Below, piece by piece: positions 8,375 through 36,008 of a stretch of 39,736 nt of DNA (the stretch's first letter is position 1; each line of letters starts with the position of its first letter). The position numbers were made by a program, and so were the translations under genes. The notes beneath the pieces are model-generated. The model searched no databases. It saw nothing but the letters and a program-made list of their open reading frames with translations, and was not told the DNA's origin. The stretch comes from Candidatus Heimdallarchaeota archaeon. Lineage in GTDB: Archaea > Asgardarchaeota > Heimdallarchaeia > Hodarchaeales > Hodarchaeaceae. Location of the stretch: assembly GCA_048881705.1 (NCBI GenBank), contig JBHLSH010000029.1, forward strand, positions 1-39,736, read 5' to 3'.

Positions 8375-9493
8375 TTAATTAAAAAACCTCTCTAGTGAGG
8401 TTTGTCCAGCACTACTCTTTAGAGAAGAGACCTTTACTCCAATAAGCCGAACAGGTTTTGTAAATACCGCACCAGGTTCGGAAGTGAATTCCGAAAGTAA
8501 ATTCAGGGCAGTATCGTTGATTGTTTTCTCATCTGCAATGTGTGTTCTTAGGGAATGACTCCGCGTATAAGTCTGAAATCCCTGGAACCTAATTTTGATA
8601 GAAATTGTCTTTGATACTAGCTTCCTGTCTGTTAAACGCCTTGATAGATTTGTTGTTATCTGAGCGACCTTCTCCCTGATAATATTCCAGTCATTTTGAT
8701 CTGTTCCGAAAGTACGTTCAGAGCTTATAGATTTGCGTTGTACTCTGGAATTGCCGACCTCTTTGAAATTTTTTCCTTCCACGACTTTTTTCAGGTACAA
8801 TCCCCATTCTCCAATCAGAAGAAAAGCCCTCTCGCGCGATAGTCCCGCTATATCACCGATACTTCTTAATCCTTTATTGTGTAGGTGTACCTCGGTCTTT
8901 TTTCCTACGCCAACGATTTTTCGTACAGGGAGATGATATAATCTTCGAGGGATTTTGGAATTCGGAATTAAGGTAATTCCCCCAGGCTTATCAAGATCAG
9001 ACGCAATTTTAGCAATGGATTTGGATTCTGCGACACCTAAAGAGGCTGAAAGGCCAACTTCCTCCCTAATGGTTGTTTGTATTTGTTCGGCGATATCACG
9101 AGGGGATACTCCAAAATCACGCCAAATCCCGGTTACATCAAGGTAAGCTTCGTCCATGCCTGCATATTGAAAAATCGATGAGAATTCACGAACGATGTCC
9201 ATTACTTTTTCTGATTCCGTCGCGTATTCCGGGAAAGAAATCTGTTCCCGAGAGCAGATATATACTCCATCTGGGCATAACTGATATGCTTTTGATATTG
9301 GCATTCCAGAGTGCAGCCCAAAACTTCGTGCTTCATATGAGCAGGTCGAAATGACTCCGCGTCCTGCTCCGCCCCGAGGATCCGACCCTATGATGACAGG
9401 TCGCCCCATCAAAAAGGGGTTGTATTTAATATGCACCGCTGCAAAAAAGCAGTCTAAATCGATGTGAATTATTACATGACTCCAATCCTTCAT
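8375..9493 (-). CDS. dinB: DNA polymerase IV (Y family)
   Basis: HIDLDCFFAAV, CSYEARSFGLHSGMP, MDEAYLD, SKSIAKIASDLDKPGG, little-finger RLIGV, C-terminal PIP box QTSLERFF. Confidence 0.97.
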   Translation of the reverse strand: MKDWSHVIIHIDLDCFFAAVHIKYNPFLMGRPVIIGSDPRGGAGRGVISTCSYEARSFGLHSGMPISKAYQLCPDGVYICSREQISFPEYATESEKVMDIVREFSSIFQYAGMDEAYLDVTGIWRDFGVSPRDIAEQIQTTIREEVGLSASLGVAESKSIAKIASDLDKPGGITLIPNSKIPRRLYHLPVRKIVGVGKKTEVHLHNKGLRSIGDIAGLSRERAFLLIGEWGLYLKKVVEGKNFKEVGNSRVQRKSISSERTFGTDQNDWNIIREKVAQITTNLSRRLTDRKLVSKTISIKIRFQGFQTYTRSHSLRTHIADEKTINDTALNLLSEFTSEPGAVFTKPVRLIGVKVSSLKSSAGQTSLERFFN

Positions 9494-11376: not shown

Positions 11377-12483
11377 ATGAAAGGAGAATCTTTCTCTCTA
11401 TCTGTAAACGAGAAACGGGTTTTAATTGGAATTTGCAGCCTTCCATACTCATCTGACAGCGAAATTGCGGAAGTTGTAAACACAAAACGCAGCACATTTG
11501 GAAATATAAAAAGGCGGTTGTTTGATGACTTTCAAGCCGTTCAGTCGCTTAACGTTCCCAACTTCCAAGCCCTTGGTGCTGAGCTTTTTATGTTTGGGTT
11601 GACTTTGATGAACCCTATTAAGATTGAGAGTTTGGATAGGCAGGAGATCCTAAGTAGACTTAATGCATTTCCAAATATCATTTACTCTGCCTCGGATTTA
11701 AACGCCGGTTTCGCGTACTTGGTCAGTAAGTCATTTACCGATCTATCTATTGCTCACAATTCGATCGCTAGTTATTATATCGAGGAGCTTTTAACCTATC
11801 CAGAGGACGTACACCGTGCGATCATTCCCTTGGGGAAACCCTACGGAATCATCCGCTTTTTAGAGTTCGGAAGGATTTTACAGAAGGTTTGGGATGTCTC
11901 TATCCATTCTCCCACTGATCTACCTCCGATTTCATCCCCTCTACAAGAAAGTTCACTCCAGATTTCTCCCCTAGGATGGGAAATTCTCAGAAGTTTGTTA
12001 AGACATTCCAGTTTCTCGATTATCGAACATGCCGAGGCTTTGAATCGATCCAGGAACACTATCTCCCGTTGGATAAGCAAATTGACTGGTATTCACCTAT
12101 ATCATCCTCGATTTATCCCGAATCTTCACCTCCTGGGATTTAATCTTCGCGTCTTGGGCTCATTTTCCTTGGAAGGATTAAAACAGATCCAACAGTTAGA
12201 ATTCTTGGAACTAGTCGACACTTTCTTATTGCCCGACTCCCTTTTTCTAAGTTTTAGGGAAATCGTGTTTTCTGCAGTCTACCCTGACTACACGACCTTT
12301 CGTTCCCGCGAGAATCAGCTGTTGACAGCGCTTAGCAAGAGGAATCTCCCTTTGATTGTGAAGTTCAAAATCGAAATGACGCTAGATCGGCTTATCGTAG
12401 CAAAGGATTTTTCATTCTCATCACTAATTGACTACCTTAGGACGCCAAAAGAACAAATTTTGGCATCTTATCAGCGGAACTAA
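11377..12483 (+). CDS. Internally duplicated Lrp/AsnC-like HTH regulator, paralog 1
   Basis: Two HTH units (SDSEIAEVVNTKRSTFGNIKRRL; SIIEHAEALNRSRNTISRWISKL), each followed by an Lrp-like linker (PNFQALG; PNLHLLG). Confidence 0.75.
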   Translation: MKGESFSLSVNEKRVLIGICSLPYSSDSEIAEVVNTKRSTFGNIKRRLFDDFQAVQSLNVPNFQALGAELFMFGLTLMNPIKIESLDRQEILSRLNAFPNIIYSASDLNAGFAYLVSKSFTDLSIAHNSIASYYIEELLTYPEDVHRAIIPLGKPYGIIRFLEFGRILQKVWDVSIHSPTDLPPISSPLQESSLQISPLGWEILRSLLRHSSFSIIEHAEALNRSRNTISRWISKLTGIHLYHPRFIPNLHLLGFNLRVLGSFSLEGLKQIQQLEFLELVDTFLLPDSLFLSFREIVFSAVYPDYTTFRSRENQLLTALSKRNLPLIVKFKIEMTLDRLIVAKDFSFSSLIDYLRTPKEQILASYQRN

Positions 12484-12627: not shown

Positions 12628-13704
12628 ATGAAAGGAGAAAATGTTAACCTTTCACTTAACGAATGCCGTGTAATGACGGGCTTATGTCAATTTCCGACTT
12701 TTTCAGACAGTAAAATAGCCGATATGATCGGAATTAACCATTCTACTTTCGCAACAGTTAAAAAGCGCCTGCAACAAGACGGATTATTTAATAAATATCG
12801 TTTACCAAATTTATCGGCGCTTGGCGTCGAGATATTATCAGTTTTGATAAAAAACCTAAGGAAAAATCCATCAACTGCACCTAATAATCTCTCCAGAATA
12901 GATATATCTTTAAATTCGCCAAATATACTTTTTTCCTTAGCTGAAACAAATTTCTCCTTACTAACTGTCGCGCACCAAAATTTCACAGAACTAGGAGAGT
13001 TTTTATCTAAATACGACCGATTTACTTCTGGTAATCAGCGGATCAATCATGAATCCAAACTCGAAATCCATTTTCCTCTCTTTTTTTCACTGATACCACG
13101 ATTTCTTGACTTTTCTCGTTCTCTTCCAGCACATCTTGGCTTATCGCCGTCCCCAGCTCCATTGAGAACCGTATTCCCCAAGGTAGACTATTCAGAAGTT
13201 AGAATTACGAAACTTGGTTGGCGAATCTTCCGGGCATATCTAGAATTTCCAGAATATACTTCCAAACAAATTGCTCAAATCGTTAATAAACCTCGAACTA
13301 CGGTCTCTCGCTGGCTCCGAGCGTTGACTCAGGCAGATCTCATTTCCCCCATTATCATTCCTAATTTTCAAAAATTGGGCTACCAGTTATTTTTGATTGG
13401 GAATCTTGCCGTAAGATCTTCAAATAAGAAAATTTTTTCTCACGTGTTAAGTATTTGCGATGAGGCGATCCTTCCTGTAGTTCTGATGCAAACGGATCAC
13501 GATGTTTTCTATATATCTCCTTTTTCTACCTTGGAAGATGCTCAAAAGGCCGAATTCGAATTCATTCAAAAAATGAATGACGCCAGGATTGGATTTCGAC
13601 GTGTATTTAGGAGTCTTGTTTCTCTTCCCCATTCTACGTTCACCCTTAAGCTGAATTCCGGATTTCTTGAATTTGCCGATAGTTTAGGGAGATCAACGTT
13701 GTAA
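12628..13704 (+). CDS. Internally duplicated Lrp/AsnC-like HTH regulator, paralog 2
   Basis: Same architecture (SDSKIADMIGINHSTFATVKKRL...PNLSALG; TSKQIAQIVNKPRTTVSRWLRAL...PNFQKLG); aligns by eye with paralog 1 from MKGE onward. Confidence 0.75.
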   Translation: MKGENVNLSLNECRVMTGLCQFPTFSDSKIADMIGINHSTFATVKKRLQQDGLFNKYRLPNLSALGVEILSVLIKNLRKNPSTAPNNLSRIDISLNSPNILFSLAETNFSLLTVAHQNFTELGEFLSKYDRFTSGNQRINHESKLEIHFPLFFSLIPRFLDFSRSLPAHLGLSPSPAPLRTVFPKVDYSEVRITKLGWRIFRAYLEFPEYTSKQIAQIVNKPRTTVSRWLRALTQADLISPIIIPNFQKLGYQLFLIGNLAVRSSNKKIFSHVLSICDEAILPVVLMQTDHDVFYISPFSTLEDAQKAEFEFIQKMNDARIGFRRVFRSLVSLPHSTFTLKLNSGFLEFADSLGRSTL

Positions 13705-14271: not shown

Positions 14272-15351
14272 CTAGAAGTACGAAGTAAGGCTCTTAGTGG
14301 GTTTTGTCCATTTTTTTCTTTGATTCCTCATTAGTTCTTCCAATAGATGTGTTTCCCACGATTTTGTTATTTTTTCAGGGAATTCTTTCCGGAGAACCTG
14401 AATCACTTCGGTTAGGCGAGGTTTTGATGAGATATCCTTCCCGAGGAATTCGTAGACGATTTCTAGGATCTGGTAAAAATCAGCGGTTCCAAAGGTCTTA
14501 TACTGGCTCTGAATGCGTGGGGGTTTCCAGGGTTCCAAGATTCTTGATTGAATTAGCTTTTTGTAGTCCGAATTGATCTCATATCCGATTCCTCGTCTTC
14601 CAATCAGCCTACAGACCTTTAAAGTTGTCCCAGATCCCAAAAAAGGGTCTAGGACAGTTTCTCCTCGCACAGAATGCATCCTGATTAACCGATATGGGAT
14701 ATCCTCCGGAAATGGTGCAGAATGCCCAAATTTGTTTTCACCGCGATGATTGATCTTAAATACGGGAGAAATATCATCCCATATACATCGAACGGCCCAG
14801 TGTCGCCATTCTTCTTTCGTCAAAAGGCTTTTCCGCATTGCTGCTTTGTCAACTTTCCTAGTTTTTCCTTGTTTAACCCACACAAAGACTTGTTCAAATC
14901 CCGTGTTGGATGCAATATTGGTGGGTTTAGGGTACGATCCCCAGGAAACATTAGACACATACTCCGCTTTATCCCAATAATGCATGCCTGAGAGGAAGGC
15001 CCCTTGTGCCTGCAGATATTTCTGTATATCAAACATAATATTTTTGATAACTCGACGTCCAAATCCGGACCTATCCCTATTAATAGGAAGAGGTTGTATA
15101 TTGATCGCAATTTTACCATTAGGTTGAAGAACACGCATACATTCGGCCCATACGCGGTTTAAAGAACTAATATAATCCTCATATGCTTGACCAAATCCAA
15201 TTTGGTCACTTCCATAATCTCGTACCGACCAATAGGGTGGAGAAGTCACAACCAAAGTGACCGACTCATCAGGAACATCTTCCATCTTTTCTGCAGATTG
15301 GAAGAAGATGGTCTGGTTCTCGATAACAAATTTTTCCTCTACAGTAATCAT
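14272..15351 (-). CDS. Beta-class amino (N4-C or N6-A) DNA methyltransferase, apparently orphan
   Basis: Catalytic motif VTSPPY near the N-terminus, HSAPFP, then SAM-binding VLDPFLGSGTT, which is the beta motif order. About 80-aa C-terminal extension ending TKSLTSYF. Confidence 0.93.
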   Translation of the reverse strand: MITVEEKFVIENQTIFFQSAEKMEDVPDESVTLVVTSPPYWSVRDYGSDQIGFGQAYEDYISSLNRVWAECMRVLQPNGKIAINIQPLPINRDRSGFGRRVIKNIMFDIQKYLQAQGAFLSGMHYWDKAEYVSNVSWGSYPKPTNIASNTGFEQVFVWVKQGKTRKVDKAAMRKSLLTKEEWRHWAVRCIWDDISPVFKINHRGENKFGHSAPFPEDIPYRLIRMHSVRGETVLDPFLGSGTTLKVCRLIGRRGIGYEINSDYKKLIQSRILEPWKPPRIQSQYKTFGTADFYQILEIVYEFLGKDISSKPRLTEVIQVLRKEFPEKITKSWETHLLEELMRNQRKKWTKPTKSLTSYF

Positions 15352-15417: not shown

Positions 15418-16299
15418 TCAACTTAAAAAAGCCCTGAGACGCTTTAATAGAGATATATTGACATAATCCCCCTTATCACGGTCTTTTGGAGTTTCAAGAA
15501 TCATAGGAAGCTCTTTGAATCGCCTATTTTGCATTAACTCACGGAAACATTCAATTCCTATTTCTCCCTTTCCGATATGCTCATGATGATCAATGCCCGA
15601 ACCAAGAGAACCCTTGGAATCGTTGAGATGAACTACCTTCACCTTGTTTTTACCAATCTGTGATTCGATTAGGTCGAATACTTCATGTAAACCTTCTGAA
15701 GTGGAAATATCATACCCTGACGAGAAAGCATGAGCAGTGTCAAAACATATTCCCACTTTTTCTGATTTTGTAACCAGATTCAGAATTTTTTCGATATCTT
15801 CTGTTTTAGTCCCCCAAGTTTTCCTTTTTGACGTTGAATTTTCCAGCAGGATCATTTGGTTTTCATCTAGATTTTCTAAAACCTGGTTTAAGGCATTGGC
15901 TACCCGATTTGCGGCAAATCCATTGTCAAGATCTTTTGGGCTACCCAAATGAGTTATTAAATAAAGGCCATTCAAAGAGTCGAGCGATTGGACTTCTTCT
16001 TCCAAAACCTGCAAAGAGCGAAAATAGATTCCGTCATCAGGAGAAGCCAGATTAGGCAGATACGGCATATGAACCGCTAGATCATAGTATCCTGCTTGTG
16101 TAGCCTTCTCAATGAATAATGAAACCGAACTAGGATTAAGTGTGTTTTTCCCCGCAGCCCACCTTCTTGGAGGCCGTGTAAAGATTTGCAGACATTCGCA
16201 AGAACTTTTAATCGCTCTGTCAACGGCTAGGTCGATAGAAAGGGCGATTGATTTATGGGCGCCAATTCGCGGTAGTTCGTAACTGATAGGGGATTTCAC
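15418..16299 (-). CDS. nfo: Endonuclease IV (AP endonuclease)
   Basis: HMPYLPNL, THLGS, LLENS, CFDTAHAF, HLNDS, DHHEHIGKG, ILETP metal-ligand motifs. Confidence 0.96.
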   Translation of the reverse strand: MKSPISYELPRIGAHKSIALSIDLAVDRAIKSSCECLQIFTRPPRRWAAGKNTLNPSSVSLFIEKATQAGYYDLAVHMPYLPNLASPDDGIYFRSLQVLEEEVQSLDSLNGLYLITHLGSPKDLDNGFAANRVANALNQVLENLDENQMILLENSTSKRKTWGTKTEDIEKILNLVTKSEKVGICFDTAHAFSSGYDISTSEGLHEVFDLIESQIGKNKVKVVHLNDSKGSLGSGIDHHEHIGKGEIGIECFRELMQNRRFKELPMILETPKDRDKGDYVNISLLKRLRAFLS

Positions 16300-30471: not shown

Positions 30472-31182
30472 TCAGACCTTTTTTGAGGTCTGAAGTAATT
30501 CTTGATTTTTTAAAACGTATTTTGGCCCAAATCCTTCGAGACTAGCAAGCGGCCCTTCTAAACCTTTTGGATTTCCTGTTTTCGTATAGGTTATCTGAGT
30601 ATCCACTATTCCCTTAAAGACTTCAGATGGGCTACCATCAAACGTTTGTAAAAGTGTTTCCGCTTTCTTGATTCCAGTATTATGTAGACCTTGGATAAGA
30701 AACAACTGTTGATCCCTAATGCTTCTCTTTTTTGGGGATGATCTGATAATTATCGGATCGGTTTTTTCCTCTTGTACCCAGGAAGCGATTCGGTTCAGGC
30801 AGATGGCAGATTCCCCCATGTTTACGGTTGGTACCACTGGAACCTGGCGTTTAAGAAAAATATAGGTCAACGCGCCGTACACATGTTTCTTTCGTTTTTT
30901 CCATTCTGTTCGGGCGAACGCTGAGGGTAAATCTTCCAATAGTAATAAGGGTTGCTCGTAGGCTTCAATCAACCGATCGATCTGTTCAAACAACCTATTA
31001 TCCATTAGAGAGGATATTAAATCGGCACCGGTCTTCCGCTCACAAGCCACCTGTTCTGAGAAAACATAATCTCCAATATCAAGCTGCCGTTCTTCAACTA
31101 CCATCTCGAATCTCTCAGACAGAGCTTTTTTAATTCGGAGCGGCTCTCTATGGTCTACTATCAAACGTAATCTACTATTCAT
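30472..31182 (-). CDS. ERCC4-domain nuclease (XPF/Mus81-like short form) with HhH region
   Basis: IVDHRE, LDIGDY, ERKTGADLISSLMDNRLFEQ, LLLED, then HhH-like LIQGLHNTGIKKA and LEGFGPK. Confidence 0.92.
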   Translation of the reverse strand: MNSRLRLIVDHREPLRIKKALSERFEMVVEERQLDIGDYVFSEQVACERKTGADLISSLMDNRLFEQIDRLIEAYEQPLLLLEDLPSAFARTEWKKRKKHVYGALTYIFLKRQVPVVPTVNMGESAICLNRIASWVQEEKTDPIIIRSSPKKRSIRDQQLFLIQGLHNTGIKKAETLLQTFDGSPSEVFKGIVDTQITYTKTGNPKGLEGPLASLEGFGPKYVLKNQELLQTSKKV

Positions 31183-31201: not shown

Positions 31202-33598
31202 TCATTTTGGATGATACCCAGACTTGTTCAGAGAACCTGGTAACATATTATTTTGTACCATCGAGGTTACCATTCGCCGAATGAGATCTGGGGGAATATT
31301 TAGGGTCGAAAAATCCCCCCATCGAATAATTTTTTTCGCTTGTTGTTCAGGGCGGTTAATAAAGTATAAAACCCTACCGGCCGCATTTTTTAGAGTTAGA
31401 ATTCTTTCATCGCTAGTACGAACAAGCTTCTCATTTTTATCTATCAATTTATGGAATAGATCCAACTGGCTTTGGCCAAGATCTAAATCGAGGATTTCCC
31501 CAAGTTCCGCCAGTGCCAGTTCTTGTCGATATTCAAGGATTCCATTAATTTCCTGCAGTATTCCTCTTTCTGTGATAAATTCCCCAACGGAATTCGTTAT
31601 TCCCGAAAGCTGGAGGACTTCATGCACGATAATCCTCAGGATAGAGTCAGGGAGTTCTAATTTGAAGGCCAGCACGTCAAAATTGATCCTGGGATGCGTA
31701 CTGATTTCATTCTGCACTCGTGTGAGGAGACTTTCCTCTATATAATACCTACCATCTTTGTCTTGTCTACTCACATACTCTTGAAGAAGGAATTCGGATA
31801 TTTGACGTTTTATTTCAGTACTGAGTCTGCTAAAACCAGATTCCTGAATAAATTGCTCCAAATGCAAGTAACCGTGTTTATCATAATGGTCTTTCACCAG
31901 ATCCAGAACGTTTTTTATTGAGGTAACCTTTCCTGAATCAACTCGAAAAACTTGAAGCTTTATGGATTTTACCAGACTGTCGAGAAAATCAGAAAAATCA
32001 ATCCCGATAACCGGTAGGAGATGCTGAACTTCGGTTTCACCTAAATTGTTAATATCATGTTCTATCTTAGCTAGTTCGGAAAGGTCAATGAAAACCTGTA
32101 ACCCTTCCAACCATCTTCCAGGGTGAACCCCGTTAATAAAATCGACAAATTCCCGAAATTCGATTTGTGGATTACCTAGTTCTTGAATAAACTTGTTGAA
32201 TCCTTGGATCTTGTATTGGGCCAAATTCATCCTCCATTTTTCCCTCACAAATCGCCGAGTAAGGAAAACCTCTTCCGAATTTAACCACCCGTCTGTAGGA
32301 TCATATATTTTAGGAAGAATAACCTCTCTTATTCGTTCTGGAGAAACATTTGTCCGTTTACTGAGATCTAATAGAGAGAAATATCCTTTATTTTGAATAT
32401 CGTCAGATATCTCTGATAACAACGCCTCAGTAATATAGATCTCAGGAGAAAGCCTGTTGGTACCAGAAATCTCAGACACTACCGTTTCAAGGATATCCTT
32501 TCCAATCTGATCAAAGGGGGAGCGCTGTAGTAGAATGGGGAGTTGAATCACATCAAATTGCTCAAATTCAGCTTTAATAAGCTTTTTCAGTCCGTTTTCG
32601 GTAAATATCGTTCCATCTGATAGCGGATATAATTGCAGTTTCAGCATATCCTCGATTAGTATCTTGATGGTAAGTTCGGTCAATTGAAATTCATTTGCAA
32701 GTTCGGAATAATGGAACTGAGATTTATTGGATACACGGCTTCGAAAGTCTTCGATAGCAAAAGACATCTGATTTTGTAAAGCAGAAACTGCTGAATCGAA
32801 ATTTTGTTTCGTATTTCTAGTTCCAAGGTGAAGTAAAGCCAGCAGGTCAAGTTTTCCTTGCTCAATGACGGTTTTTATTATTTCAGATTCACTTTTCTTA
32901 AGAAATGCCGCCGCTGTTTCACGTACATATTCATTTGAGTCGGTTAAATTCTCAATAAAGGAAATCGTAACTTCTGGGCTAAGTTTTTCCTCCATATGTT
33001 CAAGGGCAGAACTTGCCTGATTGCGTGTTAAATCATCGAATTCTGGATTTCGCATGATCTCGATTAAAGCCCCAATAGCCCGTGGTGTTTTTAGCTTACC
33101 TAAGGCATATATTACAGTACGTCGAAGTCCACCTGTCTCGGTCTCTAGTAATCGTAAGAGAATTGGTTCTACTCCCTTGATCTGATGTTTTACGACGATA
33201 TTGAGTGCCGTATTCAAAACTGCCTTATTGGGATCCTTTAGTGCTTTTATAGTAAAATCTGGTAACTTAGAATGTCCCTTTTCCGATAACCACTCCAAGG
33301 CGTACGATCGAATACCAGGATTTGGATCTTGGGGGTCGCTAAGAATTGAAAAAACTAAGGGCGCAACTAGTTTTGGAGTTTCCCTAGCTGTTCCGATGAG
33401 CGTGATAATTGCTGCCTCTCGTACTTGGTCATTGCCATCTTTTGTCAGTGTTTGTAAAGACTTTCTGACCATTCGTTCACGAAACTCTTCTGGACTAGAT
33501 TCCAAGAATCTTCTAAGGTTGATTACCGCAGAAAGTCGAACTTCATGGTTTTTTGCTTTCAAGTTTCTTAAATCGGTGACTACTGATGATTCTGACAT
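31202..33598 (-). CDS. HEAT-repeat protein with C-terminal tandem winged-helix-like repeats
   Basis: About 7 HEAT/PBS-like units (VRLSAV, VREAAI, IRSYAL, LRRTVIYALG, TRNQASSAL, VRETAA) then repeated units like FHYSELANEFQL, FSLLDLSKRTNVS, INFDVLAFKLELP, LALAELGEILDL. Confidence 0.75.
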   Translation of the reverse strand: MSESSVVTDLRNLKAKNHEVRLSAVINLRRFLESSPEEFRERMVRKSLQTLTKDGNDQVREAAIITLIGTARETPKLVAPLVFSILSDPQDPNPGIRSYALEWLSEKGHSKLPDFTIKALKDPNKAVLNTALNIVVKHQIKGVEPILLRLLETETGGLRRTVIYALGKLKTPRAIGALIEIMRNPEFDDLTRNQASSALEHMEEKLSPEVTISFIENLTDSNEYVRETAAAFLKKSESEIIKTVIEQGKLDLLALLHLGTRNTKQNFDSAVSALQNQMSFAIEDFRSRVSNKSQFHYSELANEFQLTELTIKILIEDMLKLQLYPLSDGTIFTENGLKKLIKAEFEQFDVIQLPILLQRSPFDQIGKDILETVVSEISGTNRLSPEIYITEALLSEISDDIQNKGYFSLLDLSKRTNVSPERIREVILPKIYDPTDGWLNSEEVFLTRRFVREKWRMNLAQYKIQGFNKFIQELGNPQIEFREFVDFINGVHPGRWLEGLQVFIDLSELAKIEHDINNLGETEVQHLLPVIGIDFSDFLDSLVKSIKLQVFRVDSGKVTSIKNVLDLVKDHYDKHGYLHLEQFIQESGFSRLSTEIKRQISEFLLQEYVSRQDKDGRYYIEESLLTRVQNEISTHPRINFDVLAFKLELPDSILRIIVHEVLQLSGITNSVGEFITERGILQEINGILEYRQELALAELGEILDLDLGQSQLDLFHKLIDKNEKLVRTSDERILTLKNAAGRVLYFINRPEQQAKKIIRWGDFSTLNIPPDLIRRMVTSMVQNNMLPGSLNKSGYHPK

Positions 33599-35453: not shown

Positions 35454-36008
35454 TCATAAGAACTCTTTTGCCCTCACATTGAGGATATTCGTCGTCATGG
35501 TTTGGAATGCCTCATTTACATTCTTACCTGTTTTAGCGCTTGTTGTGATATAATCAATGACATGCATACTGTCTTTTGCCTTTTTTACTTCTGCCTGCGT
35601 AATACCTGGTTTTAGGTCTACTTTATTTCCTATTAGGATGGATAACGAATTTGGCGCAACACGGAGAACCTGTGCCTGCCAGCGTTCCTGAATATGGATC
35701 AAGGTGTCCGCACGAGTTAAATCAAAAACGTAGAAAGCTCCTAAGGCCCCTTTTAAGTATAAATGAGAATAAGAAACATGTCGAGCTTGACCAGCGATAT
35801 CCCATAACTGGAGGCTAACGTGGCGGATAGTATCTTGGGTATCTATAAAACGAATCGTTTTGGTTAGAAAATCTACCCCCAACGACATTGAATAATCTTC
35901 TTTGAATTTATTCTCAATAAACCTTAAAATTAAGCTTGTTTTCCCTACAGCCCCATCTCCCATCAAAAGCAATTTCAGAACATGTTTTATTTCTTTCATT
36001 TTGGGCAT
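35454..36008 (-). CDS. Rab-like small GTPase
   Basis: G1 GDGAVGKT, LGVDF, G3 WDIAGQ, YLKGA, VFDLT, G4 NKVD, G5 TSAK; no C-terminal Cys motif. Confidence 0.95.
   Translation of the reverse strand: MPKMKEIKHVLKLLLMGDGAVGKTSLILRFIENKFKEDYSMSLGVDFLTKTIRFIDTQDTIRHVSLQLWDIAGQARHVSYSHLYLKGALGAFYVFDLTRADTLIHIQERWQAQVLRVAPNSLSILIGNKVDLKPGITQAEVKKAKDSMHVIDYITTSAKTGKNVNEAFQTMTTNILNVRAKEFL

Follow-up and report, generated by a model that had tools for sequence, protein, structure and literature searches.

A PIP-box-like tail at the end of an orphan DNA methyltransferase of a Heimdallarchaeota archaeon

Can a DNA methyltransferase of prokaryotic type be held on the replication clamp? The question is raised by a 359-aa open reading frame (ORF) on the minus strand (14272-15351) of a 39,736-nucleotide stretch of DNA, hereafter the window, which comprises positions 1 to 39,736 of contig JBHLSH010000029.1 of Candidatus Heimdallarchaeota archaeon (GCA_048881705.1). 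The ORF encodes an orphan beta-class N4/N6 DNA methyltransferase, recognized from the ORF list, the PF01555 profile, the PADLOC Type II methyltransferase models and a structure match, and its last eight residues, TKSLTSYF, resemble the PCNA-interacting peptide (PIP) box. Sequence comparison makes it likely, in our judgement, that this terminal box docks in the PCNA pocket and that clamps on nascent DNA or on repair patches are the platform from which the enzyme acts. According to this mechanism, the single PCNA of the archaeon would take up the box in its hydrophobic pocket with the help of the adjoining basic flank, the methylase would ride the clamp left on newly made DNA, and sites would be modified soon after replication or after repair synthesis. 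PCNA binding, the timing behind the fork and the base that is modified are what we infer.

The methylase and its terminal box

The catalytic domain spans residues 31-268 (14548-15261, minus strand, as are all other features of this gene), where the PF01555 (N6_N4_Mtase) profile matches with 134.3 bits against a cut-off of 26.7 (E 8e-39); the genome search returned the same span, and the structure model has a predicted local distance difference test score (pLDDT) mostly above 90 there. Motif IV, the catalytic loop S37-P-P-Y40 (15232-15243), precedes motif I, the S-adenosylmethionine (AdoMet)-binding stretch D235-P-F-L-G-S-G-T-T243 (14623-14649) with F237-L-G-S-G241 at its center, and this is the beta-class order. 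Both motifs are invariant among close relatives: motif IV in alignment A2, with at least 90% conservation in alignment A3, and motif I in columns D235 to T242 of A2. Among solved structures, that of TTHA0409 from Thermus thermophilus (2zie/2zif/2zig; phmmer E 3e-34) is the nearest, and Foldseek aligned the methylase model with 2zif_A over 258 columns (E 5.5e-22, target-normalised TM-score 0.84). This model (md023a4817bd6), built from 150 sequences with a pLDDT of 92.2 and a predicted TM-score of 0.90, superseded a poor one built from 36 close sequences (pLDDT 60.7). By profile, motif order and fold, the protein is a beta-class N4/N6 DNA methyltransferase; its best matches among the PADLOC defence models are Type II methylases (E 6e-60). 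The SPPY form of motif IV is typical of N4-cytosine enzymes, depositors named the orthologs cytosine-N4-specific, and the best NCBIfam matches are adenine enzymes that score below cut-off; we predict that the enzyme is probably N4-cytosine specific.

Beyond the PF01555 match, which ends at residue 268, the protein continues for 91 aa. An earlier note on this DNA had described such an extension after the core, which is indeed present, and had put it at about 80 aa, which is too short by the profile boundary. The model places three helices (289-304, 313-323 and 330-349) in residues 289-349 (14305-14487), and the conserved stretch FP.K.TKSW..HL of alignment A2 lies in this region. The three-helix extension matched no Pfam family and had no counterpart in solved relatives, the structure alignment ending at about residue 271, and an Atlas search with residues 277-359 returned scores of at most 0.80, which is chance level, and no named relative. 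The extension possibly contacts DNA. It leads into a basic flank, R342-NQRKKWTK-P351 (14299-14328), and the seven residues preceding the box (RKKWTKP) carry a net charge of +4. According to PMC6881253, the affinity of a PIP box can rise with positive flanks over as much as four orders of magnitude, and such flanks can offset a degenerate motif.

The ORF ends in ...RNQRKKWTKPTKSLTSYF and a TAG stop codon (14272-14274). The box itself, T352-K-S-L-T-S-Y-F359, occupies 14275-14298 at the extreme C-terminus, exactly where the earlier note had located it. Read in the register of the tail of the large subunit of replication factor C (RFC-L), EKSLTDFF, it has the aliphatic L355 at position 4 and the two aromatic residues Y358-F359 at positions 7-8. 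In the structure model, the lowest confidence falls on the block 351-359 (mean pLDDT 64), where residues 355-358 (LTSY) make a short turn.

The docking peptides of the same genome offer a direct comparison. RFC-L ends in EKSLTDFF, to which TKSLTSYF is nearest among the own-genome tails, FEN1 in RQSLDQFF, and the Y-family polymerase DinB of the window (8375-9493; IMS and IMS_C domains), whose translation ends GQTSLERFFN, carries the canonical Q-x-x-L-x-x-F-F box QTSLERFF (8381-8404, minus strand). The resemblance of the methylase tail to that of DinB, with Thr replacing Gln, had been pointed out before and is borne out. Gln at position 1 is also absent from accepted clients of this genome, namely RFC-L (E), UDG (K) and SRAP (K). 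The presumed partner is encoded by one PCNA gene in the 91%-complete genome (L001:964-1830, contig C24 of G000); its 288-aa product matches solved archaeal and eukaryotic PCNAs and, like its relatives, finishes in a long acidic tail of some 30 residues.

To see how often such an ending arises, we applied three rules to the 3161 ORFs of this genome (3.96 Mb) that are non-nested and at least 100 aa long. The loose rule, a C-terminal xxx[LIMV]xx[FYW][FYWLIM] ending no more than 6 residues from the terminus, was satisfied by 245 ORFs (7.75%), and the relaxed rule, which in addition permits Phe at position 4, Val at position 8 and an end within 10 residues, by 496 (15.7%). The strict rule, fixed in the script, demands an end no more than 3 residues from the terminus and, in the 10 upstream residues, at least two K/R and at most three hydrophobic residues; the window methylase is among the 32 ORFs (1.0%) that pass it. 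Since the loose motif is found in 7.75% of ORFs, the tail alone is not decisive. By Pfam assignment, the strict set includes ten non-methylases of DNA metabolism (a Topo VI-B fusion, PolB, RFC large subunit, FEN1, SRAP, UDG, DUF4130, a radical-SAM/HhH protein, HerA and TatD) and four PF01555 methylases, that of the window included. The rule misses the boxes of DinB (QTSLERFFN), the second PolB (QVNLMEFFT) and Nre (QKRLTDFFNSSKFQ). It is enriched in clamp-type clients yet not clean.

The tail among orthologs, paralogs and controls

The earlier note had named a lack of ortholog conservation of the tail as one of the outcomes that would refute its proposal. We scored the 120 best database relatives (59-71% identity) by the same rules, and the outcome favours the proposal, as the tail recurs: 40 of 120 carry the loose motif, against 7.75% of the proteome, and 55 of 120 the relaxed one, against 15.7%, although these counts overstate the support, kinship making the sequences non-independent. 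Representative endings read KTVLDKFFD, RKTVLDKYL, QKVVLDNFF, KSLDKFLKID and FKSFDEFLKK, with mostly K or R at position 1. In alignment A2, whose 36 relatives were chosen for having tails, an L-D-x-[FY]-[FL] column aligns after a linker without any conserved column. The motif is thus kept among orthologs while the linker varies, and some clades lost it. A quick maximum-likelihood IQ-TREE of the catalytic cores, comprising 116 of the 120 rows (P0069, P0075, P0081 and P0107 are omitted, as the core-cutting pattern did not match them), placed tailed orthologs in both major clades. Its well-supported branches force at least 8 tail changes, mostly losses by whole clades, and the tail label is clustered (0 of 500 shuffles gave a value as low). 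An ancient tail that was repeatedly lost would be the simplest reading of this pattern.

Of 151 genomes that represent the species of the phylum, 10 contain an ortholog of at least 60% identity, and 7 of these 10 belong to the genus of the window; the gene is thus present in 7 of 8 genus genomes, the window's own counted, and patchy across the phylum. Five of these seven genus genomes have the tail: this one, G102 (KSLASYFQP), G136 (VVLDNFFNNS), G139 (TNLDQFFNTS) and G130 (KSLDKFLKID). Compared with the 90%-identical protein of G102, the flank differs at 6 of 14 places and the box (TKSLASYF in G102) at one non-consensus position.

Paralogs within the genome gave a second line of comparison. 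Among 13 PF01555 genes with a near-complete profile match, 9 end in the loose motif, against 236 of 3148 other ORFs (Fisher p = 4.8e-8), this set of 'full-length' paralogs having been defined only after the table was inspected. Their tails read RLKLTEFL, DEGLTRYL, KRTLIEFM, RKGLDPFM, TKSLTSYF, SRDLQHFL, KTPLDHFL, AKSIDVFL and LENLDSFL. Besides that of the window, the PF01555 methylases with an L-x-x-[FY]-[FLM] tail lie in G000 at C10:51460-52392, C77:1786-2544, C30:29831-30943, C17:6437-7450, C48:783-1643, C16:6192-7247, C85:7624-8394 and C14:9265-12162, and the neighbours of the tailed paralogs are ordinary metabolic genes. Three of the paralog families were scored by loci across the phylum. 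The C77 family (252 aa) has the loose motif at 9 of 17 loci and the relaxed motif at 12 of 17; its genus members carry a canonical Q-x-x-L-x-x-[FY]-L box (KQSTLESYL, KQATLEKFL, KQSNLENFL), and five further loci end in QTGLDAF or QTGLDNF. The Gln that the earlier note had suggested looking for in other sequences is therefore found, in this paralog family. In the C10 family (310 aa) the counts are 8 (loose) and 12 (relaxed) of 29 loci. The C30 family (370 aa; in 65 of 151 genomes) has 3 of 30 loci by either rule, and apart from this genome and its 83%-identical closest relative no member shows the added tail; the C30 tail may be a recent gain, or else it is weak evidence.

Homologs outside these families served as controls. 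The control scan of genome contigs was dominated by a generic AdoMet-motif pattern and yielded one true ortholog and 79 distant homologs, 80 loci in all with 34-44% identity, of which 4 lacked a complete ORF. Among the 69 bacterial homologs whose ORF is complete, a single one satisfied the loose rule, and none of the 7 other archaeal homologs did. In this genome the rule picked out 2 of the 22 large PF02384 methylases, both outside a basic context. It also picked out 15 of 149 cluster representatives; the two of these 15 that carry organism names come from Hodarchaeales and Heimdallarchaeaceae. As the controls mostly lack the motif, the tail is not a property of the fold; to judge from these sequences, it is associated with the small, stand-alone methylases found in this archaeal group. 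Together, the ortholog and paralog comparisons raise the tail above chance.

Several observations nevertheless weigh against a working clamp box, in addition to the relatedness of the orthologs and the late definition of the paralog set. Position 1 is Thr352 in place of the canonical Gln. A matrix built from nine reference tails, overfitted and left untuned, ranks the window tail 59th of 3161. The strict set holds ten plainly unrelated proteins (P-type ATPase, SecY, GH57, tRNA synthetase, nitroreductase, ICMT, DoxX, L7Ae, PFOR-beta and Cdc48), and 8 of the 32 have an unknown or ambiguous role. In the model only about 5 residues separate the last predicted helix from the box, so that access to PCNA would not be assured. 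Large ortholog clades are tailless, for example 19 rows that end right after the KSW..HL helix, as are the genus members G107 and G119, and on this account the tail is dispensable.

Some of these points bear on one alternative in particular, namely that the window tail is a decayed or chance look-alike that no longer binds PCNA. On this view the protein would be a free orphan methylase of the ordinary kind, descended perhaps from proteins with a functional box. The Thr at position 1 and the low matrix rank would suit this view, as would Tyr at position 7, which none of the nine reference tails has, the complete loss of the tail in sister lineages, the frequency of the loose motif by chance (about 8% of ORFs) and the long branch (0.52) on which the window methylase stands beside relatives with a better L-D-K-F-F. 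On the other hand, L, Y, F and the terminal place are kept in the 90%-identical relative despite the change of flank, and the tail passes the strict rule, lies near RFC-L EKSLTDFF and follows a flank of +4. The window tail is, as a sequence, a weak version of the PIP motif, and we regard decay or chance as an unlikely explanation, albeit the strongest of those that compete with docking on PCNA.

The paralogs also invite a wider reading, in which a whole battery of orphan amino-methyltransferases would be PCNA-tethered in this Asgard lineage and genome-wide patterns of N4-methylcytosine (m4C) and N6-methyladenine (m6A) would be copied in the course of replication and repair synthesis. Its scope would take in at least four PF01555 families of this genome that are unrelated to one another, some with a canonical Gln box. 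We put it forward tentatively, as a possibility that we doubt more than we believe. If true, it would mean that the prokaryotes most closely related to eukaryotes have replication-coupled epigenetic maintenance, on the same clamp logic but with enzymes other than DNMT1, the tails being a modular add-on repeatedly gained and lost.

A different ending was seen in a related family of the phylum (f10, loci L062-L071), whose shorter members of about 280 aa are 41-46% identical to the window methylase and share a conserved acidic end, D-[TS]-F-E-F-[IL], which differs from the basic PIP-like tails.

Neighbourhood of the gene and other features

The gene is flanked upstream by endonuclease IV (nfo; 15418-16299, minus strand; PF01261, and TIGR00587 with 221 bits, over cut-off), a same-strand neighbour 66 bp from the methylase start, and downstream by a convergent response regulator gene. 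Five other genomes of the genus (loci among L053-L058) show the order nfo, a gene of about 190 codons, methylase and response regulator. The additional gene was considered as a nuclease and rejected, its product being a flavin reductase (PF01613); it is absent from this genome and its closest relative, and the genus as a whole preserves the order nfo-(flavin reductase)-methylase. No cognate restriction nuclease was seen among the genes adjoining the methylase, here or in relatives, and none of the 9 neighbouring proteins scanned matched a PADLOC defence model. Because no restriction partner is visible in the neighbourhood, the methylase is a stand-alone (orphan) enzyme.

The earlier note had called the methylase an orphan, which this neighbourhood supports, and had contrasted a clamp-coupled enzyme with one of restriction-modification, an either/or that the data do not force. 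The methylase could still belong to a restriction-modification system whose nuclease is unrecognised or encoded elsewhere, in which case the tail, if functional, would only speed protective methylation. Restriction nucleases are often invisible to profile libraries, the best PADLOC match is to Type II methylase models, and the family is patchy, as the 10 of 151 genomes with orthologs of at least 60% identity attest; against this, both flanking genes are of housekeeping families, their order is kept in the genus, the extra gene of the relatives encodes a flavin reductase and the neighbouring proteins gave no PADLOC match. We hold this explanation to be very improbable.

The place of the gene next to nfo may be a hint of a repair role, with which it would fit. 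The same conserved array with endonuclease IV can be read in favour of another alternative, that the conserved peptide docks on a different partner, such as a replisome or repair hub, or folds back as a regulatory element; the box closely follows a helix in the model, which would suit it as well. This is countered by the fact that the same kind of peptide ends the classic clients RFC-L, FEN1, two PolB, DinB, Nre and UDG, and we know of no other hub that reads this motif in archaea. Nor does the tail fit the hydrophobic-Tyr-X ending that docks on the proteasome; this candidate was rejected on the residues before the aromatic one (Ser or Lys). A different partner thus seems improbable to us, and docking on PCNA is the reading that we retain.

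Several other proteins of the genome have endings of interest. The RFC large subunit gene lies just downstream of the PCNA gene on the same contig, and KKKKKRVKKKEK precedes the RFC-L PIP box. A 2338-aa protein (G000 C68:4391-11407; L002), in which a Topo VI-B-like ATPase and transducer are fused to many helix-hairpin-helix/RAD51D-N-like repeats, has the PIP-like end LGQLDKFMGE. An SRAP (HMCES-like) protein (G000 C6:41555-42226; L016) ends in KKKSPKTTLSEFF, and an O6-methylguanine methyltransferase (G000 C59:7006-7584; L019) in PTTLDNWLYH; by their sequences both look clamp-tethered, and eukaryotic HMCES has a PIP box. PIP-like tails, LKSLDIFFS and YSRITEFL, also end two neighbours, a DUF4130 protein and a radical-SAM/HhH protein (C7:15704-16303 and C7:16325-17497; L018 and L154). 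Crenarchaeal XPF carries a C-terminal PIP box; the ERCC4/XPF-like nuclease of the window (236 aa, 30472-31182) was considered as a further example and rejected, as it ends in LLQTSKKV and has no box.

In the window, two adjacent paralog-like proteins of about 360 aa (11377-12483 and 12628-13704) have a double helix-turn-helix (HTH_23, MarR-like) and otherwise belong to no known family. A HEAT-repeat protein of 798 aa (31202-33598), whose E3 UFM1-ligase-like match is weak, and a Ras-family small GTPase (35454-36008) are eukaryote-like signature proteins typical of Asgard archaea. The window also encodes an archaeal phosphopantothenate synthetase, and the nearest database relatives of window proteins bear the depositor labels Hodarchaeota, Thorarchaeota or Promethearchaeota.

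Comparison with known clamp clients and methylases

The usual view of archaeal PCNA clients takes in polymerases, nucleases, ligase, glycosylases and the clamp loader. The review PMC4929162 names PolB, the RFC large subunit, Fen1, the Y-family polymerase, UDG, NreA and NucS as carriers of a C-terminal PIP box and gives the consensus peptide KTTQSTLDSFFK. Like these, the methylase has a short L-x-x-aromatic-aromatic end after a basic flank; unlike them, the putative client is a DNA methyltransferase, a class absent from that list, and has Thr for Gln. The nearest hint in the same review is a putative adenine methylase that co-purifies with NucS, PCNA, RFC, Hef and Topo VI in Pyrococcus abyssi. 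A search of the main texts of papers turned up no report of an archaeal DNA methyltransferase with a PIP box, and term searches of Asgard methylome and replisome papers and of a Haloferax review found no link between methylases and PCNA. A PCNA-tethered orphan methylase would probably add a new type of client to a motif that is already known.

In its catalytic fold and motif order the enzyme resembles TTHA0409, M.PvuII, M.RsrI, CcrM and rotifer N4CMT; TTHA0409 and the other beta-class enzymes named have neither the terminal box nor the three-helix extension. The survey PMC10609329 documents archaeal m4C/m6A methyltransferases that persist as orphans, and the window methylase is like them in being stand-alone, Type II-like, kept within its taxon without a nuclease and probably an m4C enzyme. 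PCNA occurs 0 times in that survey, whereas the window methylase would be tied to the clamp, and its family is patchy across the phylum. The nine-residue tail thereby offers a concrete, testable handle on how and why archaea keep 'persistent' orphan methylases, and peptides together with recombinant PCNA would suffice for a test, no culture of the organism being needed. If prokaryote-type orphan methylases do ride the clamp, methylation in these archaea would be timed by replication, as in eukaryotes.

The eukaryotic counterpart is DNMT1, a C5-cytosine enzyme (PF00145 type) with its box in the N-terminal region, which is recruited by PCNA. The window enzyme, unlike DNMT1, is a PF01555 amino-methyltransferase with a C-terminal box, and the two share no homology beyond the AdoMet fold; PF00145 was not found in the window methylase, which matches only PF01555, and the genome's one PF00145 gene lies elsewhere, on contig C115. 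The parallel that the earlier note had drawn thus holds as an analogy and not as shared ancestry, since both the methylase class and the place of the motif differ. What the two would have in common, by this analogy, is the idea of maintenance, a methylase on the clamp that marks new DNA early.

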